Sequence record: MZ779063.1
Direction: 5' to 3' (one strand)
DNA length: 64,000 bases
Source of the DNA: Staphylococcus phage vB_SauM-UFV_DC4
Positions 13,811-33,880 of this stretch are shown in pieces. A program made the position numbers and the translations under genes. How positions within the stretch are numbered: position 1 is the stretch's first letter; every line of letters starts with the position of its first letter. The notes beneath the pieces were generated by a model that searched no databases, had not been told where the DNA came from, and saw only the letters and a program-made list of their open reading frames with translations.

Positions 13811-14470
13811 ATGAAAAAATTTAGAGATGAATTAATAAATCACTATACAAATTTATTGAGATTCAATGATGATTCTTTTTATTATAGATTAAAAATTAAT
13901 TATTTGAATTTCGATTTCTCTAAAGATGTAAATTTAAGAAAAAATAATGTGTTTAAATTAAATTATAAAATCAGCTTTTTCCTATATTTTAAAATTTTAA
14001 TAAAAGATTTTATTTCAAATAATTTAGATGAAAATGGTGTATCATTATTATTTTCAGATAGTGTTAATAATAATAATTTTATTTCTACATTATTTGTTAA
14101 AAATAATTCTGATATTGAATTGAAACTAGATTTGGGTGTTTATTATGAACTAGATGAAACTAAAATAGTTCTAATAGATTTAAATGAAGAGTTTAATATA
14201 GAATATTCAGATGATAGTATTATAATTCATACAGATGAAGATAATTTTGAAAATGTAGTTTATTCTATTCTAAACAAAATCAAATTCATCTTAGAAGGAA
14301 ATATATATGCATTTAGCATATCTTTATTTGGCAATGGAAAAATAGGAGATAGTAATATATTTTATTTAGAAGAGATTGAAAATATATTTAACTCTAGAAA
14401 AAATAGTATAATTGAAGAACTTTCTGAAAGTGAAGTTAAAAAATATAAAATCAAAGAAGGGTTTAAATAG
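13811..14470 (+). CDS. C-tail family protein (tail SEVKKYKIKEGFK)
   Basis: ends with the conserved tail; GGGAAAT RBS. Confidence 0.55.
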   Translation: MKKFRDELINHYTNLLRFNDDSFYYRLKINYLNFDFSKDVNLRKNNVFKLNYKISFFLYFKILIKDFISNNLDENGVSLLFSDSVNNNNFISTLFVKNNSDIELKLDLGVYYELDETKIVLIDLNEEFNIEYSDDSIIIHTDEDNFENVVYSILNKIKFILEGNIYAFSISLFGNGKIGDSNIFYLEEIENIFNSRKNSIIEELSESEVKKYKIKEGFK

Positions 14471-14472
14471 TA

Positions 14473-15084
14473 ATGGGTGATATTAAATTTAATGAAGAAT
14501 ATATGTCAGTTAAAATTTATAAGTTAATTAATTTGTTTGAGTTTCAACAAACAACTCGTAAAAGAGCATTTTCAAACCATAATTCTGAAAGTGATGAAAA
14601 TGAGCTTAATATGTATATAGGTAAAAATGACAATAAAAATATGATTGACATTTTTACTAATTCTTTCTTTTTATACAATCAATTTAAAGATGTTTGCAGT
14701 TTAGTATTTAACAATGGTAATACTATTATTGCAGAAATTGAGATATTAAATAAAAATAAATTGTCAATTGAAATTAATTCAGAAATCTTAATTGTTGATA
14801 GTGAAATTAAAAATTTCATTATCAAAAATGATTTTAGTGTAGGAGATGGCTTCTTAGGCTTAATTATTGAAAATGATAAAGAAAAAATTCTTAAATTATT
14901 TTTAGAATCATTGTCTGATAGTTATTTTTGGATAAACAAGAAAAGAAGTTTAAATATATCTGATTCTAAAAAAATTAAATTTAAAAAATATTTAGAAGAT
15001 TTATATAAAATGAAAGATTTTTATAGTAAAGAAATCACTGAAAAAGAATATAAAGAAAATATAGTAAAAGATAATTTCAAATAA
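14473..15084 (+). CDS. C-tail family protein (tail KEYKENIVKDNFK)
   Basis: tandem paralog of 15176-15817. Confidence 0.55.
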   Translation: MGDIKFNEEYMSVKIYKLINLFEFQQTTRKRAFSNHNSESDENELNMYIGKNDNKNMIDIFTNSFFLYNQFKDVCSLVFNNGNTIIAEIEILNKNKLSIEINSEILIVDSEIKNFIIKNDFSVGDGFLGLIIENDKEKILKLFLESLSDSYFWINKKRSLNISDSKKIKFKKYLEDLYKMKDFYSKEITEKEYKENIVKDNFK

Positions 15085-15175
15085 TATAATCCCAATACTT
15101 ATTAATGTAATTAACAAATTTAAAAGATTAAAGATTATTTAGTTTACGAAAGATTAGAACTGGAGTGATATTTTA

Positions 15176-15817
15176 ATGGAAGAGATTTATCTTGATAAAA
15201 GATTTGATAGTGAATATTTTAAAATAAAAACTAGAGATATGATAAACTCTGTAAGATTTACTAAAGAACCAAACTTTGATTTAATTATAAATAACCGTAA
15301 AGAAGAAAAAATTTTATATACTAAAAATGACAGTATTAGAAATTTATTTATTGAATCTTTTATCTTGTATTTAAATAATATTACAGACGTTTATACATTT
15401 AGTATATCAATCAGTAATATTAAGTTAATTTTTAGTTTAAGATACAATCATACGAATAAAGATACCAAATTTTTAATTTATATAATAGAAAATGATAAAT
15501 TTAATTATGAAAAAGATGTATCTGAATTAGAAAAAATATTAAATGACATATCTTCTTTAGTAAATAAAGAATACTATATATCTAAAGGTAGTTTTATAAT
15601 AGACTATTTAGATATAGAAAAAATTGATAAGATATTGTATTACATTAATAAATTAGATGATCTTCGTATAATGTTAGATGATTCAGAAAAAGAAGGAAAA
15701 TCGTATTTAAGTTACAACTCTTTTCTTAAAGAACTTTATTTAAAAAGAAACCTATATTCTAAAAGTATTACTAAAAAGGAATATACTGATAATTTAGTTA
15801 AAGAAAATTTTAAATAA
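15176..15817 (+). CDS. C-tail family protein (tail KEYTDNLVKENFK)
   Basis: paralog of the previous gene, including the downstream TAATATAATCCCAATAC sequence. Confidence 0.55.
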   Translation: MEEIYLDKRFDSEYFKIKTRDMINSVRFTKEPNFDLIINNRKEEKILYTKNDSIRNLFIESFILYLNNITDVYTFSISISNIKLIFSLRYNHTNKDTKFLIYIIENDKFNYEKDVSELEKILNDISSLVNKEYYISKGSFIIDYLDIEKIDKILYYINKLDDLRIMLDDSEKEGKSYLSYNSFLKELYLKRNLYSKSITKKEYTDNLVKENFK

Positions 15818-15821
15818 TATA

Positions 15822-15855
15822 ATCCCAATACCTATTACATCAATAGGTATTGGGA
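15822..15855. terminator. conserved hairpin ATCCCAATACCTATT-loop-AATAGGTATTGGGAT (copy 1), bidirectional terminator
   Basis: perfect 15-bp stem between convergent genes; same stem recurs at 29008 and 61164. Confidence 0.55.
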
Positions 15856-15872
15856 TAAATTTAAATTATTTT

Positions 15873-16169
15873 TTATTTCATGCTGTCTAATTCAGCTAAT
15901 TTTAATTTAGCTTTAGTTGCATATTTTTGACGAATTATGTCACGCCATTTTTTACGAGCACGAGCAGCTTTTTGATATTTAAAATAGATTGGATCTTGAG
16001 CTTCTTTAGCTGCAACTAATGCTAATTGGTTTAATCTACGTTTACGTTTAGTACGTTCATCTAAACGCATGATATTTTGTTCACGTAAAAGAGCTTCATC
16101 AGTTGCTTGCATAATTTGCTCTTCTAGTGGAGTAATGTTATTTTTCATAATGGAAGATCTTCCTTTCAA
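15873..16169 (-). CDS. small basic (K/R-rich) protein, lone minus-strand gene
   Basis: 98 aa; GGAAG RBS; basic stretch KRKRRLNQ...ARARKKWRDIIRQKYATKAK. Confidence 0.5.
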   Translation of the reverse strand: MKGRSSIMKNNITPLEEQIMQATDEALLREQNIMRLDERTKRKRRLNQLALVAAKEAQDPIYFKYQKAARARKKWRDIIRQKYATKAKLKLAELDSMK

Positions 16170-16295
16170 TTATTTTTATTATTCATTATAATGATTATAA
16201 GAAATATGTTTTATTTAAGAAATATGAAAAAATTATTGAACCATAATAACTTATCTTATATAAGTATGAATCTATAAGGAGATGAGAATTTATTT

Positions 16296-18230
16296 ATGTC
16301 TAATCAAGATAATAAATATGAACGTAAAAGAGCTATAACAGGATATTTAGAAAATTTAATCAAATTAATTAAAATAAGAAAACCTGATATTGATAATGAA
16401 AAGTTAATTAATACTTGTAGAGAGTATATTAAAAAACATGTAGATCCAGCTTTAATAGAAATATCTGGACAAAAAATGAATGTGGATACAACTTTAAGAC
16501 AAATTATAGATAATAATTTAATTGTAACTGGTTCTGGTTCTATTTATCAGCCTCAATCACAAAGAAAAAATTTAAATGCAGACATGTTAAAAGACTTTAT
16601 AGATTCTCGTAAAGTAGCTAAACATAATATGTTTATATATAAAGGTAAAGATGATGTTTTACATGATAAATATATGAACGAACAAAAAACAATTAAGATC
16701 TTGGCTAACAGTTATTACGGTGCTATGATTCAAAAGAATAGTACATTCTATGATGCTAATTCAGGTCCAGCAACTACATATAGTGGTGTTGATATTGTAA
16801 CTACTTCAGCAATAGCTTTAGAAAGATTTATAGGTGGAAAAATATTCTTTATGAAAATTGATGAAATATATCATTATATATTAAGAATAATCAATGAAGA
16901 ATATAAAGATCATGATATTAAAATAAAAACAATTCCAACTGATATGGAAATTTTAGAAGGTTTAGTTTCTAATGTTGAAGAATCTTTTAGCGAAGAAGAA
17001 TATCTTAAATTAGAAGAAGTATTTAGTAAATTAAGTCAAGAAGATAAAAATAAGGTATATTTCAAAAATAACTTATTTGGTTTAATTGATCATACTGATA
17101 TATTTGAGAATAAAATTAGTAAAATGACTGGTAGAGAAGATTTCTTAGATCCGAACGAACCACCTGAAGATATGATTCCATTATTAGATGAATTATTTGA
17201 AATATTAAAAGATTGGGTTATATACAACTATCAAGATTATAATAGAATGTATAGAATGAATTACAAGAAACGTAGAAGTGTTCTCACAATTGACACAGAT
17301 TCAAATTTCGTTCACTTAGATCCATTATACGAAAAAATGAAATCATTAAAACCTGAAGATTTTCCTTTAGCAGAAAATGGTTTAGAAGATAAATTAGAAG
17401 AACGTGTAGGTAATATATCTATTATTAACTATCAAATAACTAAATTATTAGAATTATCTTACTATGGATTCTGTAAAGATGTAGGATTAGAAGAAGAACA
17501 TTTAGGTTTAATATCAATGAAAAATGAATTTTTACTTGATAAACAATTAACAACAGATAAAAAGAAAACTTATGCATCATCAGTAATTCAACAAGAAGGT
17601 AATTTAATTCAACCTCCAGATTTAGATGTTAAAGGTATGGCTATTAGAAAAGTTAACACTAATAAACGTATTAGAGAATTATTTACTGAAATATTACAAA
17701 AAGATATTTTAGAAAATAAAACTGGTGTAGATCGTATTAAGATAATACGTAAATTTAAAGATATTGAAGAAATGATTAAGAAATCATTAGATAATGGAGA
17801 AATTGAATTCTTAAAACCGTTTAAAGCTAATAATGCTGAAGTTTATAAAGATCCTTATTCTCAAATGGCTTATAGAGCTGCTTTAGCATGGAATATAATG
17901 TTCCCAGAAAAGGAAATAGCACTACCTGCTAAGATATTAGCAGTTAAATTAAATATTAGTACATTTGGAGATATTAAGAATAAGATAACTGATGAAAATA
18001 CTTTAAATAGATTTAGAGAAGTATTTAAGAATGAAAGTTTAGTTAAAAATGGTTTAAATGTAATTGCAGTTGAAGGTAATACAATTCCTGAAGAGTTTAG
18101 ACCTTTTATTGACTATGATAGTATGATTGAAGATCATATTAAACCAGGTAAAGATATTATTGAATCTATAGGAGTTAGAGTATTGGAATCTTCAAATAGC
18201 TCATTTGTATCTAATATGATTAAATTCTAA
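16296..18230 (+). CDS. family-B DNA polymerase, C-terminal part (palm/thumb)
   Basis: motif B KILANSYYG (nt 16695-16721); motif C TIDTDSNF (nt 17288-17302); lacks the exonuclease motifs and motif A. Confidence 0.7.
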   Translation: MSNQDNKYERKRAITGYLENLIKLIKIRKPDIDNEKLINTCREYIKKHVDPALIEISGQKMNVDTTLRQIIDNNLIVTGSGSIYQPQSQRKNLNADMLKDFIDSRKVAKHNMFIYKGKDDVLHDKYMNEQKTIKILANSYYGAMIQKNSTFYDANSGPATTYSGVDIVTTSAIALERFIGGKIFFMKIDEIYHYILRIINEEYKDHDIKIKTIPTDMEILEGLVSNVEESFSEEEYLKLEEVFSKLSQEDKNKVYFKNNLFGLIDHTDIFENKISKMTGREDFLDPNEPPEDMIPLLDELFEILKDWVIYNYQDYNRMYRMNYKKRRSVLTIDTDSNFVHLDPLYEKMKSLKPEDFPLAENGLEDKLEERVGNISIINYQITKLLELSYYGFCKDVGLEEEHLGLISMKNEFLLDKQLTTDKKKTYASSVIQQEGNLIQPPDLDVKGMAIRKVNTNKRIRELFTEILQKDILENKTGVDRIKIIRKFKDIEEMIKKSLDNGEIEFLKPFKANNAEVYKDPYSQMAYRAALAWNIMFPEKEIALPAKILAVKLNISTFGDIKNKITDENTLNRFREVFKNESLVKNGLNVIAVEGNTIPEEFRPFIDYDSMIEDHIKPGKDIIESIGVRVLESSNSSFVSNMIKF

Positions 18231-18234: not shown

Positions 18235-18831
18235 TTGAATGAGGTATTTATTATGGAAAAATACTATAAATTTAATTTATTTGAGTGCATACTAAAAAAT
18301 ATTGGTATGCACTCAGATGAATATGAAAATTTGATAAGTAATATAAATAAAAATTTTACATCTTTATATTTTTATGACTATGAGATTAATAATAGTGATA
18401 TAGATAAATTGATATATGATAACATTCAAAAACAATTAATTGATGATAGTTATTTTTTATTTGAAATCAATAATAAAGAAGAAAGACTATTAGTTGATTT
18501 TGAAAATAACCTTTTATATGATAAATATAATGAGAAAATAGGAATGGTTTCTTTAAATAGAATTACTTCTTCTAGAGTAAATTTATTTTCAGATTTTGAG
18601 AATAAATATAGAGATTTAATATTTATGGAAAAAGAAGATATAAAATATGAAAATTTAATTGATATGGGATTTAATATTGTTACTACTTTTGAAATTTCTA
18701 CTGTATGTAAAAATAAAATAAATAATTTTAGTTACTTTGGTTTTGATATTAAAGATAATAAAAATAAGCTATTAATTGAATGTGATGAAAAAGAATTCAA
18801 AATTAATAAAGTTAAGAATAATTTTATATAA
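18235..18831 (+). CDS. hypothetical protein (weak C-tail ...KVKNNFI)
   Basis: 198-aa ORF. Confidence 0.45.
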   Translation: MNEVFIMEKYYKFNLFECILKNIGMHSDEYENLISNINKNFTSLYFYDYEINNSDIDKLIYDNIQKQLIDDSYFLFEINNKEERLLVDFENNLLYDKYNEKIGMVSLNRITSSRVNLFSDFENKYRDLIFMEKEDIKYENLIDMGFNIVTTFEISTVCKNKINNFSYFGFDIKDNKNKLLIECDEKEFKINKVKNNFI

Positions 18832-19698: not shown

Positions 19699-21210
19699 AT
19701 GAAAATAGATATGATCAACGTTGATCAAATTATTACAGCCTATGAAGCTAAAGAAGTTACCAATCCTATTTTCTTTGATTCAGGAACTTTACCTAAAGAA
19801 GACGGTTTATTCTCATATGAAATATTTGGTTTAATAGGTACTGATGAAAGAAAGAATAATGTGGGTTGGATTAATTTAGGTGGTAAATACTTAAATCCTG
19901 TAGCTTATAAAGCTATGAAAGAATTAGATAAGAATATCGATTTATGTATTCAAGGATCTGATTACTTTAAAATTGAAAAAGGACAATTAGTTCCAGATGA
20001 AAATGGTGAAACTGGATTAAATTTCCTATACGATAATTATGAAAATCTTAAATTTAGAAAAAATGATTCTCGTATCCGAAATGAAAAAATTGATATGCTT
20101 AAAAACACTCCTAAAGATAGAATATTCACAGATAAATGGTTAGTTATTCCTGCTTTCTATCGTGACTTTAACCCTAATGAAACTTCAGGAGAAATTCAAG
20201 ATACTGAAGAAATAAATGATATGTATGCGAGTATTTTAAGATCTGTAGATTCAATTAGTTTTAACTCATTTGATTTTGTAGCTAATACGACTAAATATAA
20301 TATTCAAAATAAATTATTTGAAATATACGTTAAATTAACTTCAGGTGAACTATCAGGTAAAACTGGTATGATGCAAAGAAATATTTTAGGTAAGACAGTA
20401 GATAATAGTACTCGTTCAGTTATTTCATCACCTAAAATCAATTCAAATAAATGGAATGAAATGCAAATTGAATTCGGTCAATTAGGTGTTCCATTAACTC
20501 AATTAGTAACATTGTTCTTACCTTTCTTTAGTAAATATATTATAGACTTTATTGAAATTCATAAAGATGCTTTCCAAACTGCTACTGGAACTGATGAAAA
20601 GGAATTAACATTAGAAGAAGTATATGAACAATTTGATGATAAATCTATTAAGAATATGTTAGAATACTTTATTAAAGACCCTAATGAAAGATTTAGTCCT
20701 ATATATGTAAATGATAGACAAGGTAAACGTCATAAAGTTAAATTATTTGAAAATACTTTAGGTAGAACTTTTACTGTAATTGATTTACTTTATATAGCTG
20801 CTACAGAAATATGTGAAGATAAGTATGTAGTTTATTCAAGATATCCTATTGAAAATTTCTTGAATGTGGCTCCTGCTAAAATTAAAATACTAACTACAGT
20901 TGATACAATTCCAGAAATTACTTTAGATGATATTGTACTTAAAGATTATCCTAAAGTTGTTCATGAATATCCTGTTGATGAAGATGTATTTATAGATACT
21001 GCTATTATACACAACAGTTATGCCGGAGCACTTGGTGCAGATTTTGACGGTGATATGATCTCTATTAGATCTTTATGGACAGTTGAAGCTAATAAAGAAG
21101 CTAATAAACTTCTTAATAAGAAAACTAACTATCTAAACTACACTGGTAATTCAGTACGTAATTTGGGTAACGAATCGGTACAAGCTTTATATTCATTAAC
21201 TAAAGAATAA
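19699..21210 (+). CDS. RNA polymerase beta-prime subunit, N-terminal-half homolog
   Basis: EDGLFSYEIFG matches the beta-prime DGLFCxxIFGP region; GADFDGDM catalytic Mg motif (nt 21040-21054); no Zn-finger cysteines. Confidence 0.7.
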   Translation: MKIDMINVDQIITAYEAKEVTNPIFFDSGTLPKEDGLFSYEIFGLIGTDERKNNVGWINLGGKYLNPVAYKAMKELDKNIDLCIQGSDYFKIEKGQLVPDENGETGLNFLYDNYENLKFRKNDSRIRNEKIDMLKNTPKDRIFTDKWLVIPAFYRDFNPNETSGEIQDTEEINDMYASILRSVDSISFNSFDFVANTTKYNIQNKLFEIYVKLTSGELSGKTGMMQRNILGKTVDNSTRSVISSPKINSNKWNEMQIEFGQLGVPLTQLVTLFLPFFSKYIIDFIEIHKDAFQTATGTDEKELTLEEVYEQFDDKSIKNMLEYFIKDPNERFSPIYVNDRQGKRHKVKLFENTLGRTFTVIDLLYIAATEICEDKYVVYSRYPIENFLNVAPAKIKILTTVDTIPEITLDDIVLKDYPKVVHEYPVDEDVFIDTAIIHNSYAGALGADFDGDMISIRSLWTVEANKEANKLLNKKTNYLNYTGNSVRNLGNESVQALYSLTKE

Positions 21211-21287: not shown

Positions 21288-21330
21288 AAATATATATTAT
21301 AATTATGAAGTTGATAATTATTAATCAACT
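21288..21330 (+). promoter_or_regulatory. promoter-like box AAATATATATTATAA plus 5'-leader hairpin AGTTGAT...ATCAACT
   Basis: motif copy followed by an inverted repeat, then an RBS and ATG at 21356. Confidence 0.45.
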
Positions 21331-21355
21331 AATTTAAATAAAAGGATGATTTAAT

Positions 21356-21715: not shown

Positions 21716-21736
21716 AAATATATATTATAAAAATAG
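21716..21736 (+). promoter_or_regulatory. promoter-like box AAATATATATTATAAAAATAG
   Basis: motif copy upstream of paralog array B. Confidence 0.45.
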
Positions 21737-21814: not shown

Positions 21815-22297
21815 ATGATATATTACAAAAATAAAGTAAATGGTGAAATATACGAAGTTAATGATATTCATAGAAAAGATGATGCTTTTTATTATGTGTT
21901 TGGTAATGAATTTAAAAAAGAAAGAATAGGATTATATGAATCAGTGGGTAAAAAAATTGATTTATTTGATAAAGATAAAGGACATAAAGAATTAAACTTC
22001 CAATTAAATTATGACTCATCTAGATTATTTTTAGTTACACATATGAAATATGATAATAATAATCCTTTTGCACCTAAAGCAGTAGATTTAAAGAATCAAA
22101 ATTTTGTCGCATCCGATTCTTCAGAAGATCTTTACTATATATTATATAAAAGAATGTGTAATGCAATAGATATACCTTTATTAAATTATAATGTATTATT
22201 AAAAGAATTTAATTTTGATAATGAAGATATATTTAAAATAATATCAGAAGATTGTAAAGAAGTAAAAGATTTTAAAATTAGAAATCTTTTTAAATAA
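21815..22297 (+). CDS. C-tail family protein (tail KEVKDFKIRNLFK); paralog of 23025-23516
   Basis: N-terminus MIYYKNKVNGEIYEVNDIHRKDDAFYYVF is shared with 23025-23516. Confidence 0.55.
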   Translation: MIYYKNKVNGEIYEVNDIHRKDDAFYYVFGNEFKKERIGLYESVGKKIDLFDKDKGHKELNFQLNYDSSRLFLVTHMKYDNNNPFAPKAVDLKNQNFVASDSSEDLYYILYKRMCNAIDIPLLNYNVLLKEFNFDNEDIFKIISEDCKEVKDFKIRNLFK

Positions 22298-22312: not shown

Positions 22313-23014
22313 ATGGAAAATATTAAATTGTATAAAAATCTAGAAAATGGTGATAAATTTACTTTATCTAAAGATGAAATTAATAATGGTAGATTTCTTT
22401 ATAAAGTCATGAAACAAATAAAAAGTAGTTTTTACCCATATTATAATTATGAAGACCAACCCATTACAACCAATGGAAACTCTTATTTAATTAATAAACA
22501 ACTGAATTTTCATTTTTATACACATTCTGATATTATTATAAATTTTAAAAATTTAATTGGAATAGATGAAGATATAATAATTAAGAGTAATGAAAATAAA
22601 GAAAGAAATATTTCATCTTCAATTGTTTGTTTCTCTGATTCCAATACAGATAATGATGGAATTTATGAAAATATATTTCAAATTGTTTTAAATACAAAAA
22701 AGACTAAGAAAATAATTCGTATGCTAGATAAATATAAAAGTGATAAATATAAAATATCTTCCTGTACAATGGATAAAAATGAAGTACATTTTAAAGTTAG
22801 TTTCAAACAAGATTATTTGTCTGATAAGAATAATGACGTTTATGATTCTCTAGATGAATTAATATATTATATATTAAAAGATCTTAGAATTAAGATCGAC
22901 AATTCGTATATGTATTTTATGGATTATCTAAGATGGAATTTGGAATTTATTGCTGAAGAAATTACTGATGAGGAAGAAATTAAAAATTACTTAATTAAAG
23001 AAAAATTTAAATAA
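22313..23014 (+). CDS. C-tail family protein (tail ITDEEEIKNYLIKEKFK)
   Basis: conserved tail. Confidence 0.55.
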   Translation: MENIKLYKNLENGDKFTLSKDEINNGRFLYKVMKQIKSSFYPYYNYEDQPITTNGNSYLINKQLNFHFYTHSDIIINFKNLIGIDEDIIIKSNENKERNISSSIVCFSDSNTDNDGIYENIFQIVLNTKKTKKIIRMLDKYKSDKYKISSCTMDKNEVHFKVSFKQDYLSDKNNDVYDSLDELIYYILKDLRIKIDNSYMYFMDYLRWNLEFIAEEITDEEEIKNYLIKEKFK

Positions 23015-23024: not shown

Positions 23025-23516
23025 ATGGATATGATATATTATAAAAATAAAGTAAATGGTGAAATATATGAAGTTAATAATATTCATAGAAAAGATGATG
23101 CATTTTATTATGTATTCAATAATGAATTTAAAAAAGAGAATTCGTCTTTTTATAAATCTTATGGTAAAAATATTGATTTATATGATGAAGACGTAGGAAG
23201 TATAAAATTGGAGTTTTTCTTAATTTATGATTCTATTAATCTTAATTTAACTACACACTTTTCTTGGGATTTTAATAATATTCCTTTTATACCTAAAATT
23301 ATAGAATTAACAAACCAAAATCTTGTCATATCAGACTCTTCAATTGATCTTTATTATTTATTCTATAAAAGAATATGTGATGTGATAGATATAAATATGG
23401 CATATTATAATATTCCATTAGAAAAATTTAATTTTGATAATGGAGATATATTTGAAATAATTTCAGAAGATTGTAAAGAAGTAAAAGATCTTAAAGTTAG
23501 AAATCATTTTAGATAA
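23025..23516 (+). CDS. C-tail family protein (tail KEVKDLKVRNHFR)
   Basis: paralog of 21815-22297. Confidence 0.55.
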   Translation: MDMIYYKNKVNGEIYEVNNIHRKDDAFYYVFNNEFKKENSSFYKSYGKNIDLYDEDVGSIKLEFFLIYDSINLNLTTHFSWDFNNIPFIPKIIELTNQNLVISDSSIDLYYLFYKRICDVIDINMAYYNIPLEKFNFDNGDIFEIISEDCKEVKDLKVRNHFR

Positions 23517-23708: not shown

Positions 23709-24362
23709 ATGTTTAATCACAATATCTTACTATATAAACCTATTAGCATTGATTATAATGATTTTATTGAGTTAAACAAAGAAAAATATAAAAATGATAG
23801 AGAATATATTAAAATGATAAATGTATTTAACTTAATGGAACTGTTAAAAATAGACTCTTTTAAAGATAAAACTTTCTTTGAAACTGAATGTAAATTAAAA
23901 TTAAGAGGTTATGATGAATATAAAAATATAAAAGTGGTTTACAATCAATCATTAGACAGTGATCCAATATTCTCTAATTTAAAAAACTTTAATGCAGAAT
24001 TAGATATTATAAGTAAAGAAAGAGATAATACTTATATGACTGAAGAATTATTATATGAATACAATATGATGAAAATGAGCACACATATAAATGATAAAGC
24101 TAACACTATTACAATTAAAATAAAAAATTTCATTAATTCAAATAAAGAAAATTTTAATAACGATTTTGAATTCCTTATTAAAGAATTTGAAAATAATTTA
24201 TTAAAGAATTTAACAGACCTCCATAAATATGAAGACTTACAACTTCTAATTAATAGTGAATATCACAGTTTAAAAGATATTAGTGTATATAATGAAAAAA
24301 TATTTAGACCTGCTACTGATAAAGAGTTTAAGAATTATTTAGTTAAAAAAGGATTTAGATGA
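23709..24362 (+). CDS. C-tail family protein (tail KEFKNYLVKKGFR)
   Basis: conserved tail. Confidence 0.55.
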   Translation: MFNHNILLYKPISIDYNDFIELNKEKYKNDREYIKMINVFNLMELLKIDSFKDKTFFETECKLKLRGYDEYKNIKVVYNQSLDSDPIFSNLKNFNAELDIISKERDNTYMTEELLYEYNMMKMSTHINDKANTITIKIKNFINSNKENFNNDFEFLIKEFENNLLKNLTDLHKYEDLQLLINSEYHSLKDISVYNEKIFRPATDKEFKNYLVKKGFR

Positions 24363-24373: not shown

Positions 24374-24423
24374 AAATATATATTATAAAAATGAGATAAT
24401 GAATTAATATAATTCATTATCTC
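24374..24423 (+). promoter_or_regulatory. promoter-like box AAATATATATTATAAAAATG plus 5'-leader hairpin GAGATAATGAATT...AATTCATTATCTC
   Basis: perfect 13-bp inverted repeat begins at the G that ends the box. Confidence 0.5.
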
Positions 24424-24455: not shown

Positions 24456-25064
24456 ATGGATTTAAAAGAGAATAAATTTTATTATAATAAAGATATTAAT
24501 GAGCTTTTTATAATTGGTAAGGATGAAAGTGATATTAACGATAAGATAAATAAATTCTATTATAAAAAATTATTAGAAAAAAATTTAGATTATCATGGTT
24601 TAATTAATAATCTTTATTATAATAGAAATATAAATTTTGATTTAATGGATGATGACGATATATATTTTAGTAATATGTATAATGGAATTAGAGAATATAT
24701 TAAGGTGAGTTATGTAGAATTTTCATGTACAAATTTTGAAGATAATGAAGTAATATTACAGTTAGATACTTTTATTGATAAAAGCAATGATAAAAATCTT
24801 TTAGAAGTTCATAAAGATTCGCATGGTGTTACCATAACAATGGTAAAAGGTTTTTATGAAAAAGATCTTATAAATTATAATGAATACAAAAATATTTTAG
24901 ACAAATTATCTGATCTGTTTGACACAATGCTTAAAGAAGAAAATGATGGAAATATTAAAATCTTTATAAATGATATTGATATATTTGAACCTTATGCATA
25001 TTTTAGAGAGTTAGAAGACGAAAGAGGAATTAAAAATATTTTGGTTAAGAAAAATTTTATATAA
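24456..25064 (+). CDS. C-tail family protein (tail ERGIKNILVKKNFI)
   Basis: conserved tail. Confidence 0.55.
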   Translation: MDLKENKFYYNKDINELFIIGKDESDINDKINKFYYKKLLEKNLDYHGLINNLYYNRNINFDLMDDDDIYFSNMYNGIREYIKVSYVEFSCTNFEDNEVILQLDTFIDKSNDKNLLEVHKDSHGVTITMVKGFYEKDLINYNEYKNILDKLSDLFDTMLKEENDGNIKIFINDIDIFEPYAYFRELEDERGIKNILVKKNFI

Positions 25065-25078: not shown

Positions 25079-25705
25079 ATGGATGTAAATGAATATATAA
25101 ATAATCATGATTTTTATAGAGTTGGGAATGACGGTCAAGTATTTGTATTTAATAAAGATATATCAAAAGATGAATTAAATTCTAAAATATTTTCTAAATT
25201 ATTTGCATGCGAAAATATAGGAATTTTATTGTCTGAATATGGTTATTATGTAATAGATGAATATAATGTATTCTTAAGAAATAATGATAAAATATTATTA
25301 GTTGAAAATATGACTATTGATCTAAGTTTAATTAAAGATGATCTAATTGAATTAAATTTTGCATTAATTATTAAATCTAGTCTTCCTTCAAAAATTGGTC
25401 CTTTTGAAAAAGATAAAGGTAATCATGATGATTTTTATTATTATGATACTATTATTCAAATAGAAAATAAAGATAACTTTCAACATGAATTAATTTCCCA
25501 TATAACAAATCATTTTAATAAAATGAGTGATGTTGATTTAATGCTTTTAACTGCTAAAAATGAAATTAAATTTAATAAAGATTATAGTATTAATAAAAAA
25601 TGTATTGATTTTAAATGTAATTTTAATGAAATTTATAAAATACTTAATAAATTAGAAGATGAAAAAGAAATTAAGAAATATCTAACTAAAGAAAATTTTA
25701 AATAA
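25079..25705 (+). CDS. C-tail family protein (tail EDEKEIKKYLTKENFK)
   Basis: conserved tail. Confidence 0.55.
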   Translation: MDVNEYINNHDFYRVGNDGQVFVFNKDISKDELNSKIFSKLFACENIGILLSEYGYYVIDEYNVFLRNNDKILLVENMTIDLSLIKDDLIELNFALIIKSSLPSKIGPFEKDKGNHDDFYYYDTIIQIENKDNFQHELISHITNHFNKMSDVDLMLLTAKNEIKFNKDYSINKKCIDFKCNFNEIYKILNKLEDEKEIKKYLTKENFK

Positions 25706-25718: not shown

Positions 25719-26282
25719 ATGAATTTAGATAATATTGTAATATTAAAAAAGAAAAATGATGGTAAATTTGACAATAACAAATTTATAGAATTTAATCATA
25801 ATAATATTGATAATGATGAAATATTAAGTCTTTCTTTAATTACTCTATATACAAGCGTATATGCATTTTATATAAAAAGTGATATAAAATATGACAATTT
25901 TGTTAGTTATTTAGCTAATTTTTATTTAGAAATAGATGGGTATTTAAAAGGACCTTTAAATATAACACATGATGAAAATAATAGAATGCTTATAATTTAT
26001 AAAGGAAGACTACCACAAGATATTTTCAAAGTTAGAGAATTTAACGTAAATACTAAATTATATGCGTATTTAATTAAAGATGATGAATACAATACGGTAG
26101 AAGATGATCTAATCGAATCAGTAATCAATGGATCAGAATATATAATGAATAGTGAAAGAATTAAGCCAAAAATTATTATTAATGGAGCATATAAGGATAT
26201 TACGAATGTATTAAATTATTTTGAAAAACTTACTGATGAAAAAGAAATTAAAAAATATCTAATTAAAAAAAATTTTAAGTAG
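25719..26282 (+). CDS. C-tail family protein (tail TDEKEIKKYLIKKNFK)
   Basis: conserved tail. Confidence 0.55.
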   Translation: MNLDNIVILKKKNDGKFDNNKFIEFNHNNIDNDEILSLSLITLYTSVYAFYIKSDIKYDNFVSYLANFYLEIDGYLKGPLNITHDENNRMLIIYKGRLPQDIFKVREFNVNTKLYAYLIKDDEYNTVEDDLIESVINGSEYIMNSERIKPKIIINGAYKDITNVLNYFEKLTDEKEIKKYLIKKNFK

Positions 26283-26299: not shown

Positions 26300-26923
26300 T
26301 TGGATAAGTCATTATATGTATCGGATATATTCGATGAGAAAGTTATAGGAAGAAAGGATCTTAATAAAGATGAACTTTTTGATTTGTCATTTAATACAAT
26401 TTTAAATAATTCTGCTGACACTAGATTTAATAAAGAAGGAATTAGGTTAATGTTATCATTTTCAAAGGGATTAATTTTAAAATTTGATTATGCAGACAAA
26501 TATTTTTATGTGAAAGATTTTATATTTTTAATAGAAAAAGTTGATGGTAACTATGAATTTAATTTTACATTAAGTATTCCAGAATTTGCAGACAGTGAAA
26601 TTGAAATTGAATTAGGAATTTTTGAATCGGATAAAGGTCATAGAGAATTTTATTTTAATGATTTTTCTTATTATAAAGAAGGAAAAACTTTATTAGAAAG
26701 AGCTAAAGAATATTTAATATACGATATTTTTAATAATTATGGTGTTATTTTTAGTATTTTTTCATTAAAAGACAAAAATAGAATTTTAACAGACGATAAT
26801 TTTATCATAGATAATAATGATATAGATGAAATTTATAGTCTAAAAAATATAGATAACGTATTTAGAGAAGTAACAAACGAAAAAGAAATTAAAGAATACT
26901 TAGTTCAGAAAGGATTTAGATAA
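26300..26923 (+). CDS. C-tail family protein (tail TNEKEIKEYLVQKGFR)
   Basis: conserved tail. Confidence 0.55.
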   Translation: MDKSLYVSDIFDEKVIGRKDLNKDELFDLSFNTILNNSADTRFNKEGIRLMLSFSKGLILKFDYADKYFYVKDFIFLIEKVDGNYEFNFTLSIPEFADSEIEIELGIFESDKGHREFYFNDFSYYKEGKTLLERAKEYLIYDIFNNYGVIFSIFSLKDKNRILTDDNFIIDNNDIDEIYSLKNIDNVFREVTNEKEIKEYLVQKGFR

Positions 26924-26924: not shown

Positions 26925-27536
26925 ATGAAAATAGACTTAGAATCTTATGAATACTATTACCATGATGAAGAAAAAATATTAGTTCCAGTATCATTAGATA
27001 TGAAGAAAGAAAATGCAAATGAGTTAATGACGTTTGAATATTATAAGAAAGTTTTTAAAAGTTTTAATCATAATATATTTCATAAAAGAATTCACGATGA
27101 TAATATACTATTTAGTACTCGATTAAATAAAGTGATTAACAAAAGTACTGGTATATCAATACCTGCTTATGATTTATATATACATTTTGAAATAGATAAC
27201 TCATTAAATATTATTTCCTTAGAATTAAGTTTTTCAATGGATACAAATCACTTTGATTTATTTAGAACATTCTATAAAGATAAAATAGAAGTTATAAATT
27301 TTTCAAAGACAGATTTTTTAAACTATAATCAAAATGTAGATAATTTAGAAGATAAAATGGCATGTCTATTAGCTAAATTATTCTTTGATATGCACAATGA
27401 TGAAAATGAAGATATTGAAATATATGTAGATAATTTTTACCATGAATCACTAGACATAGCTAAGCCATATAAATATTTTAGATTGATGGGAGAAAAAGAA
27501 ATAAAAAATCTAGCAACTAAAAAAACTTTTAAATAA
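26925..27536 (+). CDS. C-tail family protein (tail GEKEIKNLATKKTFK)
   Basis: conserved tail. Confidence 0.55.
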   Translation: MKIDLESYEYYYHDEEKILVPVSLDMKKENANELMTFEYYKKVFKSFNHNIFHKRIHDDNILFSTRLNKVINKSTGISIPAYDLYIHFEIDNSLNIISLELSFSMDTNHFDLFRTFYKDKIEVINFSKTDFLNYNQNVDNLEDKMACLLAKLFFDMHNDENEDIEIYVDNFYHESLDIAKPYKYFRLMGEKEIKNLATKKTFK

Positions 27537-28985: not shown

Positions 28986-29037
28986 AAATATATATTATAA
29001 AAATGTTATCCCAATACTATTAAATTAGTATTGGGAT
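28986..29037 (+). promoter_or_regulatory. promoter-like box AAATATATATTATAAAAATG plus conserved hairpin ATCCCAATACTATT...AGTATTGGGAT (copy 2)
   Basis: box followed 3 nt later by the CCCAATAC hairpin; upstream of array C. Confidence 0.5.
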
Positions 29038-29062: not shown

Positions 29063-29839
29063 ATGGAGAAAATTAACAAATACTACATTAGTAAATCGAA
29101 AGATGAATTTATAGAATTAACTTTCAATGAAAATGAAACACTCTATTTTGACTTTAAGTGGAAAGTTTTAAGTGAGCTATTCACTACAATGCAAATAAAT
29201 TATAATAAGAGATTTCTTATATCTCATGAAGAACATGATGACAATGGTTTAGTTGGTCTTAGAATAAATTTCAATGCTTTTCCCACAGTTAAATACAAAT
29301 ATAAAGGTAAGAAAAATAAAATGGAACTTCTTATATACGCTATAATACGCTTTAGTCTAAATGAAGAAGACGATAATTATATTAAGTTTAAAGCTGTTCC
29401 TTTATATAATAATAGTGAAATAGGGAAAAGATTATTTAGTAAAAGATCTGGTATATTTGATGATAATGGTGAACTAGATTTACCGCATGACTTTAATGAA
29501 GAAGTTATGATTCGCTTTTTAAAATATTTTAAAAGCCATATACAAAAAGGAAAAAGACCTTTAGAACTCAAGGACGATTTACACAAGATGTTTACTACTA
29601 CAAATAAATTAATTTTTGAATTACTAGATCAGATACAAGATCATTCAGATATTGAATTTCTTATTGCACCCGATTGGGATTTTAGTGGTAAAGAAATGGA
29701 AAAAGAAAAAGGTTTTAGTTTTGAAAAAGAATATGATAAGTATATCAGTTTAAATGATTTCGATGTTGATGCATATTTTAGAGAAATAACTGATGAGAAA
29801 GAGATTAAAAAATTTAAAGTTAAGAAAGGATTTTCCTAA
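29063..29839 (+). CDS. C-tail family protein (tail ITDEKEIKKFKVKKGFS); RDHxDIEF subfamily
   Basis: tail plus the shared internal motif LLDQIQDHSDIEFLIAPD. Confidence 0.55.
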   Translation: MEKINKYYISKSKDEFIELTFNENETLYFDFKWKVLSELFTTMQINYNKRFLISHEEHDDNGLVGLRINFNAFPTVKYKYKGKKNKMELLIYAIIRFSLNEEDDNYIKFKAVPLYNNSEIGKRLFSKRSGIFDDNGELDLPHDFNEEVMIRFLKYFKSHIQKGKRPLELKDDLHKMFTTTNKLIFELLDQIQDHSDIEFLIAPDWDFSGKEMEKEKGFSFEKEYDKYISLNDFDVDAYFREITDEKEIKKFKVKKGFS

Positions 29840-29840: not shown

Positions 29841-30659
29841 ATGAAAAATAATACAAAATATTTTATAGATAAAAAAAGAGATGAATTAATTGAAATTGAT
29901 AAAGAATATCTTAATCGATATGAGTATATTGCACACGTATTAACTGTCATTGATATGAATAAGCTTTTATATATTGAAGATCATGCTAGATCCTTTATAA
30001 ATGGTATTAATATTGAAGAAAATGATGTGGGAAATGGATTGACTTTTAATAATATAGAAATTCATAATAATATCCATTTCAAAAATATAAATAGTAAAAA
30101 TAATGCGTATAAAAATTTTAATACCGATTTTTATATAAACTTCTTTATTGATAGAATGGATAAAGTTAAAACTCAGAATTTTAAGTTAAAATTTAATTTT
30201 TATAATTCAATATATAAAGAATATTTTAATAAAATTACCAATAATTTATTAAATGAAGATAATTTAGTCAATGAAGGAGTAAATAAAGAAATAAGATCTC
30301 TTATGAATTTTGAATTATTTAAAAAAGAGTTATATAATACTAAATACAATAATAGTGAATATTTAAATCTTTTTGAAAATTCATCATATATGAAGGACAA
30401 TGTTATTGGATTTATAAATAAATTTGAAGGATTATTTTCTAGTGTAATATACCAAAATAACCTTAGTGTATTAATGACTCTTTATGAAATAAAATACATG
30501 TATGAAGATGACATAGATTTTTATATTAATTTTTATAATGAAAATTATGGTTTAGTTAATATATTAGAATTAATCGAAAGTGATGAAAATGATTTATTTA
30601 AAGAAATTAAAACAGAAAAAGAAATGAAAGCGTTTAAAGTTAGAAAAGGATTCAAATAA
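29841..30659 (+). CDS. C-tail family protein (tail KTEKEMKAFKVRKGFK)
   Basis: ATG at 29841 sits right after the upstream stop, so it is preferred over the overlapping track start at 29793. Confidence 0.5.
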   Translation: MKNNTKYFIDKKRDELIEIDKEYLNRYEYIAHVLTVIDMNKLLYIEDHARSFINGINIEENDVGNGLTFNNIEIHNNIHFKNINSKNNAYKNFNTDFYINFFIDRMDKVKTQNFKLKFNFYNSIYKEYFNKITNNLLNEDNLVNEGVNKEIRSLMNFELFKKELYNTKYNNSEYLNLFENSSYMKDNVIGFINKFEGLFSSVIYQNNLSVLMTLYEIKYMYEDDIDFYINFYNENYGLVNILELIESDENDLFKEIKTEKEMKAFKVRKGFK

Positions 30660-30680: not shown

Positions 30681-31421
30681 ATGGAATATAATAATTACTA
30701 TAGATATAAATTAGATGGAAAAATACTTCACTTTGATATGGATAGAACTGATTTACGTAGAGATAAATTGGCTGAAATATTTACTAAAGTTAAGATGGAA
30801 TATATTTATAAAGATAAAAAAATGATTAAAAAAGCAAGAAACTTTATTTACCGATCTAATCTTTCTTTAGAGTATTCTCATTTTAAAGATAAAGTATTTG
30901 TAATCAAACAAATTTCTAAAATGCTAAGTAAAAACAATGTAAGGGATTTATTAATTTACGATACGGATCTTAGTTTAGAATTTAATTCTATTTTAGACGG
31001 TGGTATATTTAAAAAAGATTTTCCAGAAGGATCCTTTTATGAAAAAATAGAAAGTAATATGAATAGAAAATATTTAATTTTAAGTGATAATATAAGACAC
31101 ACTAGTGAAAGTTTTGTTGATTTATATGATAAAGATTATATTTTAAATTTTGAAGAAGTAGAATTGCTAGTCAAAGAATTTAATAAAACTCTTTTAAATT
31201 ATCTTATGGATTTAATGAGTTATGGAAATCTAGAATTAAAAGTTAGAAAATCGGAGTTAGCATATTTTATGACAGGAATATATACAAAAATGGAAGAAAA
31301 CGAAGATAAGTTATTCCCTATATTTGATTATAAATTTTTACTTAATGAATCTGGATTATTTGAAGAGATTACAGATGAGAAAGTTATTAAAGAATATTTA
31401 GTGAAAAATAATTTTAAATAA
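30681..31421 (+). CDS. C-tail family protein (tail ITDEKVIKEYLVKNNFK)
   Basis: conserved tail. Confidence 0.55.
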   Translation: MEYNNYYRYKLDGKILHFDMDRTDLRRDKLAEIFTKVKMEYIYKDKKMIKKARNFIYRSNLSLEYSHFKDKVFVIKQISKMLSKNNVRDLLIYDTDLSLEFNSILDGGIFKKDFPEGSFYEKIESNMNRKYLILSDNIRHTSESFVDLYDKDYILNFEEVELLVKEFNKTLLNYLMDLMSYGNLELKVRKSELAYFMTGIYTKMEENEDKLFPIFDYKFLLNESGLFEEITDEKVIKEYLVKNNFK

Positions 31422-31437
31422 AAAGGAGATCAATGTA

Positions 31438-32220
31438 ATGAGTATAAATAAAAGTCATAAAAAATATTTTTTGAGTAAAATGACAGATGATTTATTTGAA
31501 GTTACTAACTTATACAGATATAATATAAATGAAGATTATTTATATCTACCTCAATTACTTTCTAATTTACAAGTAAAAAGTAATGAAGAAATAAATATAC
31601 TTTCTGAAGAGATTGTTGGTAAAGATGATAATGGAGAGAATTTATGGTCAGGAACTATATCAGCTGGATATATTTTTCCAGTTATCAAATATAATGTTAA
31701 TAATAAAAAGACAACGAATATACTTATTATTGATTTTGATATTATTTTCAACGAATCAATAGAAAATGAAAACTATTTAAAAGTTAGAATTGAAAATCCA
31801 TACTCTTCAGGTATAAATTCAATAATTTTTAATAGCGTTATTGGCAATATATTAGATGAATCCAATTCTTTAAAAGTGCCTTTTAGATTTCATATAAATA
31901 GCATGGAAGATTTAATATCAGATTTTAATAATGGTACAGAAAATAATTTTAGAAATAATAAAGATTTATACCAAATATTAGTTGAAGTAAATAGTTCTAT
32001 ATTGGAACTTTTATCACAAATTAGAGATCATTTTGATATAGAATTCTTTGTATCAGATTCTTGTTTCTCGCATATACCGGAGAATGATAAAAGAGATAAT
32101 GATGATATAGATGATAGATACTATAATTTATTTGACGAATATAAAATATCTGGAGTATTTGAAGAGATTATGGATGAAAAGATTATTAAAAAATATTTAG
32201 TGAAAAATAATTTTAAATAG
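31438..32220 (+). CDS. C-tail family protein (tail IMDEKIIKKYLVKNNFK); RDHFDIEFF subfamily
   Basis: tail plus LLSQIRDHFDIEFFVSDS. Confidence 0.55.
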   Translation: MSINKSHKKYFLSKMTDDLFEVTNLYRYNINEDYLYLPQLLSNLQVKSNEEINILSEEIVGKDDNGENLWSGTISAGYIFPVIKYNVNNKKTTNILIIDFDIIFNESIENENYLKVRIENPYSSGINSIIFNSVIGNILDESNSLKVPFRFHINSMEDLISDFNNGTENNFRNNKDLYQILVEVNSSILELLSQIRDHFDIEFFVSDSCFSHIPENDKRDNDDIDDRYYNLFDEYKISGVFEEIMDEKIIKKYLVKNNFK

Positions 32221-32235
32221 AAGGAGATCAATATA

Positions 32236-33030
32236 ATGGGTGTAATTAAAAGTGATAAAAAATATTTCTTATGTAAAATAAATGATGAATTATTTGAAGT
32301 TGATAAAAATCATAGAGATTCATTTTTATATGACTATTTACCTTTAATAATAGCTGAAAAAATAATTAATTCGACTGAAAAAGATTCATATGAAACTAGA
32401 GCAATGGATGTTTATTATAAAAAAGAAGATAATGTAATTGAAGGTAATTTAAAATTTTTAGCAAGATGTTTACTTCCTGTCCTGTATAATTTCAATAATA
32501 AAAATTCATTTAAAACCGTTATGACTCTCGCAAATTTTAAATTTAAAAGGGATGCTAATAAATCTACTTTTAGTATAGATAAAAATAGTGTTAATGATAA
32601 AATACTATTTCAAATGAGACCTTTAGGAAATGAAATTGATGATATTTTATTTAATAGTATTATAAGTGACCTTTTGAACGAAGATGACGAAATAGAAATG
32701 AAACAAATGTTATTAGTTGGTAATTTTGAAAAATTATTAAACGAAATTGATAGTCAAAATATAAAACATCATGATGATTTTAAAATTTTAATCAAAGATA
32801 TATTCAATATTTATCTTAATTTATTAAAATCCTTAAGACATCATCTTAATATTGAATTTTTCTTTTCTGAATCTTCTTTTCTAGACACGTTAAATGTTTA
32901 TAATTTTGATATTATTAATAAAGATAGTTATAAAATAAATATTTTTGAAGATGATTTAGATGGAATATTTGAAGAAATTACCGATGAAAAATTTGTTAGA
33001 GAATATTTAGTGAAAAATAATTTTAAATAA
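32236..33030 (+). CDS. C-tail family protein (tail ITDEKFVREYLVKNNFK); same subfamily
   Basis: tail plus LKSLRHHLNIEFFFSES; 3' end and downstream RBS nearly identical in DNA to 31421 and 32220. Confidence 0.55.
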   Translation: MGVIKSDKKYFLCKINDELFEVDKNHRDSFLYDYLPLIIAEKIINSTEKDSYETRAMDVYYKKEDNVIEGNLKFLARCLLPVLYNFNNKNSFKTVMTLANFKFKRDANKSTFSIDKNSVNDKILFQMRPLGNEIDDILFNSIISDLLNEDDEIEMKQMLLVGNFEKLLNEIDSQNIKHHDDFKILIKDIFNIYLNLLKSLRHHLNIEFFFSESSFLDTLNVYNFDIINKDSYKINIFEDDLDGIFEEITDEKFVREYLVKNNFK

Positions 33031-33043
33031 AGGAGTTAATATA

Positions 33044-33880
33044 ATGAGTGATGTATATTATGAATATAAATTGAGAAATAAAATATTTAAGTTTAATGAT
33101 GAAATTGAAGATTTAAGCGATACCGGTATTAAGAACTTTATAACATATGAAAATAATATTTTAAGCAATTTATTGACAAATATATTAATTGATCATACTG
33201 TCTATGGTTTTATACCGAATATATCCTATGAAGAAAATAAAAATGATGGTGTTGATAAAGAATATGTAAAAAAGGTAAATTTAAGTATTTTAAAACATTT
33301 ACCCTTAGTATCATACAGTGTAGGTAATTCAAATATATTAAATGATTTTTCTTTAAATGTCAATTCTGTTGTTGATATTTATAAAAAAGGAAATTTCGAA
33401 GATGAAGAAGGCAATAAAATGATTATACCTAAAGAAAATTTTAAATTGGAGACAAATATAAATATTGATAATTTAGGTGGAAAAATCGATCATGAATTAT
33501 TTAATAAAATATGTGGAGATATTTTTGATCAAGACGAGAATTTTTTATTTTATAAAATGTATGATCATATATTAGAGGAAAATTCTATGTCACTATATGA
33601 GAATATAGGAAATATAAATAATAAATTGGTTTATGAAATTATACTCCGTTTAAATAATAATATTTTATCATTATTTGAAAAAATCAGAAGTCATTTAGAC
33701 GTGAGATTTTATTTAAGAGATAAAGACTTTTATCTTTTCAGTAATGGAGAAATAGACAAAGATTCATTAAGTGACGAATATATTGAAATATCTGAATTTT
33801 TAGGAAAATCATCTTTATTTAAAAAGATTACAGATGAGAAGATTATTAAAAATTATGAAATAAAAGAAAACTTCAAATAA
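33044..33880 (+). CDS. C-tail family protein (tail ITDEKIIKNYEIKENFK); same subfamily
   Basis: tail plus LFEKIRSHLDVRFYLRDKDF. Confidence 0.55.
   Translation: MSDVYYEYKLRNKIFKFNDEIEDLSDTGIKNFITYENNILSNLLTNILIDHTVYGFIPNISYEENKNDGVDKEYVKKVNLSILKHLPLVSYSVGNSNILNDFSLNVNSVVDIYKKGNFEDEEGNKMIIPKENFKLETNINIDNLGGKIDHELFNKICGDIFDQDENFLFYKMYDHILEENSMSLYENIGNINNKLVYEIILRLNNNILSLFEKIRSHLDVRFYLRDKDFYLFSNGEIDKDSLSDEYIEISEFLGKSSLFKKITDEKIIKNYEIKENFK

Follow-up and report, generated by a model that had tools for sequence, protein, structure and literature searches.

Why should nineteen open reading frames (ORFs), set in three tandem arrays and encoding proteins that seem to share little else, close on nearly the same peptide? 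The question is raised by positions 13811 to 33880 of a 64,000-nucleotide (nt) stretch of DNA from Staphylococcus phage vB_SauM-UFV_DC4 (DC4; MZ779063.1), which was analysed at its full length and is referred to below as the window. A preliminary description of this DNA took the common ending (here, the tail) for a sorting or docking tag on unrelated or weakly related bodies. Judged from sequence comparison, the tailed proteins form one superfamily whose ends are conserved and whose middle diverges fast, rather than a set of unrelated proteins bearing a tag.

A similarity comparison placed the window among the Staphylococcus jumbo phages of the AR9-like uracil-DNA clade. The G+C content of its DNA is 24%, and K, E, N and I are abundant in its proteins. 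Phage S6 is 98.8% identical to it across the first 72% of the region, and PALS_2, Madawaska, MarsHill, LY01, Machias, PB50, SA1 and AH12 show lower identity than S6. In all related records, the genes of the region are annotated throughout as 'hypothetical protein'. For the tail survey, the S6 genome (LC680885) was assembled in full and then scanned, together with the window and the syntenic loci of six other phages (eight sources), with a cut-off of at least 10 bits.

A strictly terminal peptide

The consensus F-x-E-I-T-D-E-K-E-I-K-x-Y-L-V-K-x-N-F-[K/R]-stop closes 18 of the 19 ORFs in the three arrays. The one ORF without it is 23522-23707, a product of 61 amino acids (aa) ending ...ILKGEE, and the ending claimed for all nineteen therefore holds for eighteen. 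To call these endings identical, as had been done, was an overstatement, as any two members agree on average at only half of their last 14 aa (mean pairwise identity 0.50). The corresponding value is 0.08 for 14-mers drawn at random from inside the same proteins, and 0.15 for shuffled tails of the same composition, with a maximum of 0.17 in 1000; the tail far exceeds what a K/E/N-rich composition would produce.

A 20-column hidden Markov model (HMM) of the tail, run in six frames over the whole window, scored 22.7-33.5 bits at the C-terminus of all 18 members. The next-ranked matches, 14.4 bits in 3208-3435 and 13.6 bits in 18235-18831, were also C-terminal, and no internal or off-frame match above 12.7 bits was found in the six frames of the window. 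Of the 12 members of arrays 1 and 2, an HMM built from array 3 alone recovered 8 at 15-31 bits, mostly as top-ranked matches. It was weak (6-9 bits, at the C-terminus) for the members starting at 21815, 23025, 26925 and 15176, and it missed the C-terminus of the member starting at 14473.

Over all eight sources, each of the 125 tail matches of at least 10 bits lies at the extreme C-terminus. In 122 of these copies the last residue but one is F, and in three it is M; the final residue is K in 91, R in 14, S in 11, I in six and E in three. A K at position -9 is present in at least 90% of tail copies, and E/K is conserved at -13 and -12. Among about 40 paralog lineages, no C-terminal extension beyond the tail was seen, even of one residue. 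The strict hexapeptide [IVLT][KRQ]x[NGTSKLH]F[KRIS] stands at the end of 31 of the 282 genes of S6, where its internal frequency would predict 0.08, and a relaxed tail pattern ends about 40 genes (about 15%, or one gene in seven), all on the plus strand. Tail-like ends are found on bodies of differing type and size, from 75 to 687 aa. Internal tail matches occur in 14473-15084 and its S6 ortholog only, among 127 matches; the tail-like segment of the former, DSEIKNFIIKNDF, occupies residues 109-121 (about nt 14797-14835) and suggests a relic of two units fused by loss of a stop codon.

Two further expectations of the preliminary description were borne out. Orthologs in Machias, MarsHill, SA1, LY01, PB50 and AH12 retain the tail, and the motif is absent from Pfam, from PHROGs and from the phage papers of the clade, and so appears to be undescribed. 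The conservation also proved to be that of a peptide. Position 3 of the tail codons is the least conserved, at 0.57 bits as against 0.86 and 0.73 at the other two. Nonsynonymous (dN) and synonymous (dS) divergence was pooled over 25 ortholog pairs, in which the window or S6 was compared with Machias, AH12 or SA1. The tail has a dN of 0.10, a dS of 0.44 and a dN/dS of 0.24, and the bodies have a dN of 0.23, a dS of 0.50 and a dN/dS of 0.47; the non-family genes of the same loci lie at 0.21-0.23. The dS of the tail is similar to that of the bodies, and synonymous change in the tail is therefore as fast as elsewhere. The tail peptide is under ordinary purifying selection, and the bodies, rightly described as fast-diversifying, evolve about twice as freely as the neighbouring genes.

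Constant ends and diverging middles

The supposition that the bodies are unrelated was correct in part. Most of the middles have no detectable homology, but an N-terminal beta-hairpin motif, KYY.K...GE.FEV, is common to most members and the members of array 3 are collinear. BLAST comparison of tail-trimmed bodies joins sub-families only. Among these, 21815-22297 and 23025-23516, already thought to be related at their N-termini, are 65% identical over their whole length, and the RDHFDIEFF-type box noticed earlier is indeed common to four members (29063-29839, 31438-32220, 32236-33030 and 33044-33880) and weaker in 29841-30659. Profile-profile comparison of the bodies (hhalign), with the first 20 and last 22 residues removed, gave collinear links between 26300-26923 and 25079-25705 (E 3e-5) and between two array-3 types (E 7e-4), and one more.

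As an ungapped 14-mer, the hairpin is N-terminal in roughly half of the 28 body clusters, and most of the others show versions of it that differ in loop length. None of 117 control clusters reaches 6 bits with this motif. The 150-aa and 160-aa subfamilies agree without exception at Y3 and G10 of the hairpin and at K and F of the tail. The six genes of array 3 and their homologs align end to end, with invariant Y10, K14, F131, F241 and F259. For one of them, the longest ORF begins at 29793, and the start at 29841 brings the hairpin into register.

An AlphaFold model of the 31438-32220 product, based on 21 array-3 sequences, was confident, with a predicted local distance difference test score (pLDDT) of 84.8 and a predicted template modelling (TM) score of 0.86, and shows a single alpha/beta domain. 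The model comprises the N-terminal hairpin (residues 8-13 and 19-23), a five-stranded antiparallel region, a long helix at 175-198 and a strand at the DIEFF box. The tail forms a strand at 241-244 (F-E-E-I) followed by a helix at 247-259 (E-K-I-I-K-K-Y-L-V-K-N-N-F), and lies inside the compact domain with a pLDDT of 91 dropping to 73. Independent models of clade relatives in BFVD superpose on this model at TM scores of 0.67-0.84. A fold search found no analogue outside the clade among solved structures (PDB) or BFVD viral models. On the model, the tail is predicted to be the final strand and helix of one globular domain rather than a free tag, and it may contact the N-terminal hairpin in a clasp-like geometry. 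An idea that the proteins are DNA mimics was discarded, as charge and isoelectric point are alike in family and control genes.

Distribution and copy number

The family varies in size between close relatives. Array 1 has three copies in the window and in S6, two in MarsHill, one in each of LY01, PB50 and AH12, and none in Machias and SA1. Array 3 has six copies in the window, five in S6 and four in Machias, MarsHill and SA1. Copy number shifts by whole-gene units, and one metagenome contig carries yet another arrangement of array 2. A Machias ortholog was found for 12 of the 18 members at 29-87% identity, where most non-family genes have 55-96%; of the other six members, four are without a match in Machias and two are closer to a paralog.

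Searches beyond these phages returned the same clade. HMMER against 1.84 billion representative proteins gave 19 matches, all within the clade; tblastn against 50,697 phage records gave no relatives beyond Staphylococcus jumbo phages; word-indexed searches and pattern and profile scans of IMG/VR gave none outside the clade. The tail DNA pattern had no match in 185,579 bacterial genomes, and a metagenome scan found two contigs, both of this clade. A 42-aa tail profile gave no match against 5.8 billion proteins, a database for which the profile is too short. In AR9 itself, the interval from the gene for the beta' subunit of virion RNA polymerase (RNAP) to the SbcC ATPase gene holds five small unrelated genes, with no tails and no arrays. 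By these sequence searches, the family is restricted to Staphylococcus AR9-like jumbo phages. It is not mentioned in the papers on MarsHill/Madawaska/Machias, PALS2, SA1 and DC4, and a broader literature search was likewise empty.

Proposed role of the family

The reading we favour, to which we would give an even chance, is that of a multigene family peculiar to the clade, early and non-virion, in which the termini are constant and the middle diversifies, and whose members are probably binders in host takeover or anti-defence. A host-directed role is suggested by analogy with other viral multigene families. In the proposed mechanism, each protein would be one alpha/beta domain without a known fold analogue. 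Its constant ends, namely the N-terminal hairpin and the C-terminal strand (F-x-E-I) with a three-turn helix ending N/G-F-[K/R]-COOH, would act as a clasp in the structure of the domain and offer a shared surface. Each paralog would have its own target through the variable middle, so that the family as a whole may act as a battery of early binders for host takeover or anti-defence. The changes in copy number would come from unequal crossing-over and gene conversion within the repeated DNA of tail plus ribosome-binding site (RBS).

Several observations weigh against this proposal. A single common fold has been shown for array 3 alone, and in the hhalign comparison the remaining subfamily middles are at the background set by family-versus-control pairs. 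The AlphaFold model of 25719-26282, from a 36-sequence alignment, is poor (pLDDT 46) and was left out of the fold search; only its terminal strands and C-terminal helix reach a pLDDT of 62-82. The tail-like end is carried also by hairpin-less mini-ORFs and by two large proteins, which a purely structural role does not predict, and a purely structural helix does not readily explain the want of any extension in so many lineages. Pfam, PHROGs and the fold search offer no functional hint: there was no match in Pfam and PHROGs for 10 members, nor in Pfam for 10 larger or outlying tail proteins. Further, the early timing is drawn from promoter similarity, by analogy with AR9.

Some of these difficulties would disappear if the tail worked, also or mainly, as a trans-acting C-terminal signal, either a docking peptide or a degron. 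A single machine of host or phage would recognise it, and all tailed early proteins would be delivered to this machine or cleared by it, or would carry their bound targets there. This explanation we regard as possible, though on the unlikely side. Candidate readers would be a Clp-type unfoldase or adaptor, the phage GroEL or a replication hub. It accounts well for a terminus that is never extended in 125 of 125 copies, with F (or M) followed by exactly one residue, for the conserved charged positions at -9, -12 and -13, for tail-like ends on bodies of other types, and for a tail held by purifying selection on bodies that are free. The motifs known to stand strictly at the C-terminus of diverse proteins serve, in almost every case, in sorting or degradation. 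Ends such as ...KKNFI and ...KKGFR presumably resemble C-motif 2 of MuA (RRKKAI), which is read by ClpX, and the ClpX-binding tail of SspB (LRVVK).

Other observations weigh against it. In the AlphaFold model the tail is a structured strand and helix within a compact domain, and hydrophobic residues make up about half of the helix and occur all around it, as if buried. The tail also co-occurs with the conserved N-terminal hairpin, which suggests that its partner is intramolecular. No candidate reader has been identified, and the DNA pattern tried against bacterial genomes gave no sign of host mimicry. Tentatively, and with about the same conviction, a sharper form of the docking idea may be put forward, in which the tail is a new kind of phage C-terminal address label, F-[K/R]-COOH on a capped helix, that docks about 40 early proteins to one machine. 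In one version, the labelled proteins would be a library of adaptors or 'degraders' bringing host targets (defence proteins, uracil-DNA glycosylase) to one unfoldase, protease or chaperonin; in another, the label would be a shared degron timing the removal of the whole early class.

Recombination at the 3' ends

Three adjacent genes of array 3, 30681-31421, 31438-32220 and 32236-33030, were reported to have almost identical 3' ends, and recent duplication or gene conversion was suggested. The near-identity applies to the last 27 nt, which are the same in all three and include a GTG Val codon unused in other tails; over the last 83 nt, the DNA identity is 82-83%. The bodies of these genes have only about 25-30% protein identity. 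Such 3' ends on divergent bodies therefore indicate local gene conversion and not recent whole-gene duplication, and only the former suggestion is retained.

Such exchanges raise the possibility that the 3' ends are mainly a nucleic-acid element (a promoter, a translational coupling or termination context, or a recombination site), with the peptide as its by-product. From the tail DNA it is 15-75 nt downstream to the next start codon, the converted 27 nt in the three adjacent genes are followed by a similar RBS, and the whole-gene steps in copy number are what unequal crossing-over between repeated tails would give. We nevertheless judge this explanation very improbable. Codon position 3 is the least conserved, and the tail has half the dN of the bodies at about the same dS. 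The substitutions are protein-conservative (K/R, I/V, Y/F), and L is written as TTA, CTA or TTG. Moreover, the last genes of the arrays, which stand before long spacers or terminators, retain the tail, and the DNA past the stop codon is not conserved.

Early promoters and virion proteomes

Each group of arrayed genes stands behind a promoter of the AR9 early type. The 13-mer AAATATATATTAT at 11788-11800 on the plus strand heads the operon 11862-15817, which contains array 1, and copies at 21716-21728, 24374-24386 and 28986-28998, also on the plus strand, precede arrays 2a, 2b and 3. These four lie 70-100 nt upstream of the array-1 operon and of arrays 2a, 2b and 3. The window has seven exact copies in all, at 6015, 11788, 21288, 21716, 24374, 28986 and 48738, and all are intergenic and on the coding strand. 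Of six annotated early promoters looked at in the AR9 record, five are AAATATATATTAT or differ from it by one mismatch, and the sixth is more divergent. In S6, 39 of 50 promoter matches (at most one mismatch) fall in the intergenic 6% of the genome, and most tail genes are zero to six genes downstream of a match. The same promoter motif was found upstream of 29 genes in the MarsHill preprint. Since the array promoters are identical to AR9 early promoters, the family probably consists of early genes, which by the same analogy would be transcribed by the injected virion RNAP.

The 13-mers of the segments 11788-11835, 21288-21335, 24374-24423 and 28986-29037 are followed within about 10 nt by a stem-loop (for array 2b, the hairpin at 24393-24423). 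As the stem-loop is just 3' of the promoter, transcripts would begin with a 5' hairpin. A palindromic repeat, TATAATCCCAATAC...GTATTGGGAT, is present as a half copy at 15085-15100 after 14473-15084, at 15822-15856, and at 29008-29037 after the array 3 promoter. The copy at 15822-15856 is a bidirectional terminator-like hairpin after 15176-15817.

The first of the roles suggested for the tail was capsid packaging or ejection, in which it would be a targeting signal on internal proteins that enter the host along with the DNA. Packaged proteins do exist in these phages, the virion RNAP for example. In the SA1 paper, 52 virion proteins were identified by liquid chromatography-tandem mass spectrometry, 11 of which the authors count as virion-unrelated contaminants. 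SA1 ORFs 179-183, 188-191, 64-69 and 107-111, which include the 14 tail-type ORFs recovered from the two SA1 stretches scanned, gave no spectrum among these 52 proteins, even though the neighbouring ORFs 168, 169 and 173 and the contaminants were detected. The only tail-type protein found in the SA1 virion sample was ORF58, which has a weak tail (...YFINKNFS). No family member is among the 15 proteins of the DC4 virion proteome, which is a shallow list, and the depth of the SA1 list is limited as well. The arrays also lie behind early promoters, on the early/replication strand and outside the structural modules, and Pfam gave no match, the phiKZ internal-protein family included. Packaging or ejection is thus very improbable. 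Still further down, with next to no chance of being correct, is the view that the similarity is a by-product of an AT-rich genome with K/E/N/I-rich proteins, which is ruled out by the shuffled tails, the internal rates and the cross-validated HMM, as well as by the lack of internal or off-frame matches.

Between array 1 and the DNA polymerase gene, 15873-16169 on the minus strand encodes a small basic protein of about 91-98 aa. Its product is in both virion proteomes (UFVDC4_00019 in DC4 and ORF173 in SA1), and AR9 g153 (about 99 aa, same strand), at the matching position, is annotated as 'virion protein'.

Members of the family and neighbouring genes

All members and tail-bearing outliers listed here are on the plus strand. 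Array 1 comprises 13811-14470 (219 aa, ending SEVKKYKIKEGFK; 22.7 bits), 14473-15084 (203 aa, ending KEYKENIVKDNFK) and 15176-15817 (213 aa, ending KEYTDNLVKENFK). An ortholog of 13811-14470 is present in MarsHill, LY01, PB50 and AH12 and absent in Machias and SA1. In the spacer before 15176-15817, positions 15129-15164 are an 83%-identical relic of the 3' end of 13064-13777 (13738-13773; ...KGYLGYERLELE), which by its sequence records the segmental duplication from which array 1 arose. Array 2a has 21815-22297, 22313-23014, 23025-23516 and, as a fourth member, 23709-24362 (217 aa, ending KEFKNYLVKKGFR). Array 2b has five members, 24456-25064, 25079-25705, 25719-26282, 26300-26923 and 26925-27536. 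The six full-length paralogs of array 3, which align collinearly, are 29063-29839, 29841-30659, 30681-31421, 31438-32220, 32236-33030 and 33044-33880.

An outlying weak member, 18235-18831 (198 aa), starts with EKYYKFN and ends EFKINKVKNNFI, with the strict hexapeptide. Seven mini-ORFs of 68-151 aa at 1415-3435 lack the N-terminal hairpin; five of them end ...DVNKKFK, ...EIVKENLK, ...EIVKENFK, ...FIRDNLK and ...KEIKEYLVRKNMK (about [IV]-[KR]-[DEK]-N-[FLM]-K). Several look paralogous by eye, with heptad-like repeats. A further mini-ORF, 36709-36996 (95 aa), ends KKEVIKDTFK and is also without the hairpin. The tail-type ending ascribed to the mini-ORFs is clear in 3208-3435, 2342-2620 and 36709-36996, and weaker in the others. 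Two larger clade-specific proteins, 9726-11789 (687 aa) and 11862-13049 (395 aa), have degenerate tail-like ends, ...KYLVSRIFI and ...NETVKKTFI, and belong to an early operon in common with array 1.

In S6, further tail-bearing tandem sets lie outside the window at 179442-181262 (a pair), 210954-214836, 218524-221863 and 240332-246906, the last with one tail gene at 240.3 kb and a run at 242.9-246.9 kb. The set at 218.5-221.9 kb, after the ligase gene, encodes seven proteins of about 150 aa that start with MKYYK and end with EITEKEYKxxxVKxxFK; they may be a minimal form of the fold.

The genes for the DNA polymerase catalytic subunit (16296-18230) and the virion RNAP beta' subunit (19699-21210) are uninterrupted in the window, S6 and SA1. 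Introns or homing-endonuclease genes break up one or both of them in MarsHill, Machias, PB50 and AH12, and in LY01 a transposase gene is present in the polymerase region. On the minus strand, 53361-54158 and 54324-55274 are adjacent paralogs with a common end, ...GKSNG.G.RIG.AWGTFS, and represent another tandem duplication, unrelated to the tail family.

Significance

Jumbo phages of Staphylococcus aureus are under study as agents of therapy and of transduction, and some 80% of their genes lack an assigned function. One putatively early, fast-evolving family with a predicted new fold now takes in about 15% of the genes. The F-[K/R]-stop tail is a sharp and easily mutated experimental handle. 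If the variable middles bind host targets, the family would supply a ready list of specificities for host takeover or anti-defence. No uracil-DNA-glycosylase inhibitor can be recognised in the Staphylococcus uracil-DNA jumbo phages, and tests of candidates were negative (PMC10303552); the tail family is a candidate home for the missing inhibitor of the clade. Should the tail turn out to act in trans, phage biology would gain a new C-terminal signal for sorting or degradation.

Comparison with known systems

Several known systems share one or another feature with the tail family. T4 internal proteins carry a capsid-targeting sequence (CTS), which is likewise a short peptide common to otherwise dissimilar small phage proteins. 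However, the CTS is N-terminal, is cut by the prohead protease and occurs on late packaged proteins, whereas the tail is C-terminal in every copy, behind early promoters, and not found in virion proteomes except on the weak-tailed SA1 ORF58. The phiKZ-type inner-body or internal head proteins are a paralog expansion in a jumbo phage as well, but they are virion proteins processed by the head protease, while the tail family has no Pfam match and is probably not in virions.

T4-type hyperplastic regions contain PeSL cassettes, which consist of an early promoter plus stem-loop. They too are blocks of small early ORFs that differ between relatives and are headed by an early promoter and then a stem-loop. 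The tail family differs in consisting of paralogs with constant termini, not unrelated ORFans, and in having an AR9-type virion-RNAP promoter. Like the C-terminal peptides recognised by ClpX in MuA and SspB, the tail is short and occupies the free C-terminus of proteins that otherwise differ; these peptides have in common with it the extreme C-terminal position, a basic-plus-hydrophobic ending and a free carboxylate. The tail, in contrast, has a different and longer sequence, is predicted to be helical and packed, and the MuA and SspB examples are from Proteobacteria.

The nearest parallels are in the lineage-specific multigene families of large DNA viruses, such as the poxvirus ankyrin (ANK)/PRANC F-box-like proteins and MGF360/505 of African swine fever virus. 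These also form tandem arrays of paralogs whose copy number varies between close strains, their bodies evolve fast, and they have early host-directed roles. ANK/PRANC proteins further resemble the tail family in placing a short conserved element at the extreme C-terminus of a variable, target-binding body. There is no sequence or fold similarity between these families and the tail family, which belongs to a bacterial virus. Unlike in ANK/PRANC proteins, the constant element here is a 20-residue strand and helix, seemingly part of the same domain and paired with an N-terminal hairpin, and a common hub of the Skp1 type is not known for it. Three marks of such a multigene family are found here nonetheless, namely tandem paralogs of common descent, variation in copy number and relaxed or diversifying evolution relative to the neighbouring genes. 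The tail family is therefore a new family of a known general kind, viral multigene expansion, in which the strictly terminal constant module is unusual.

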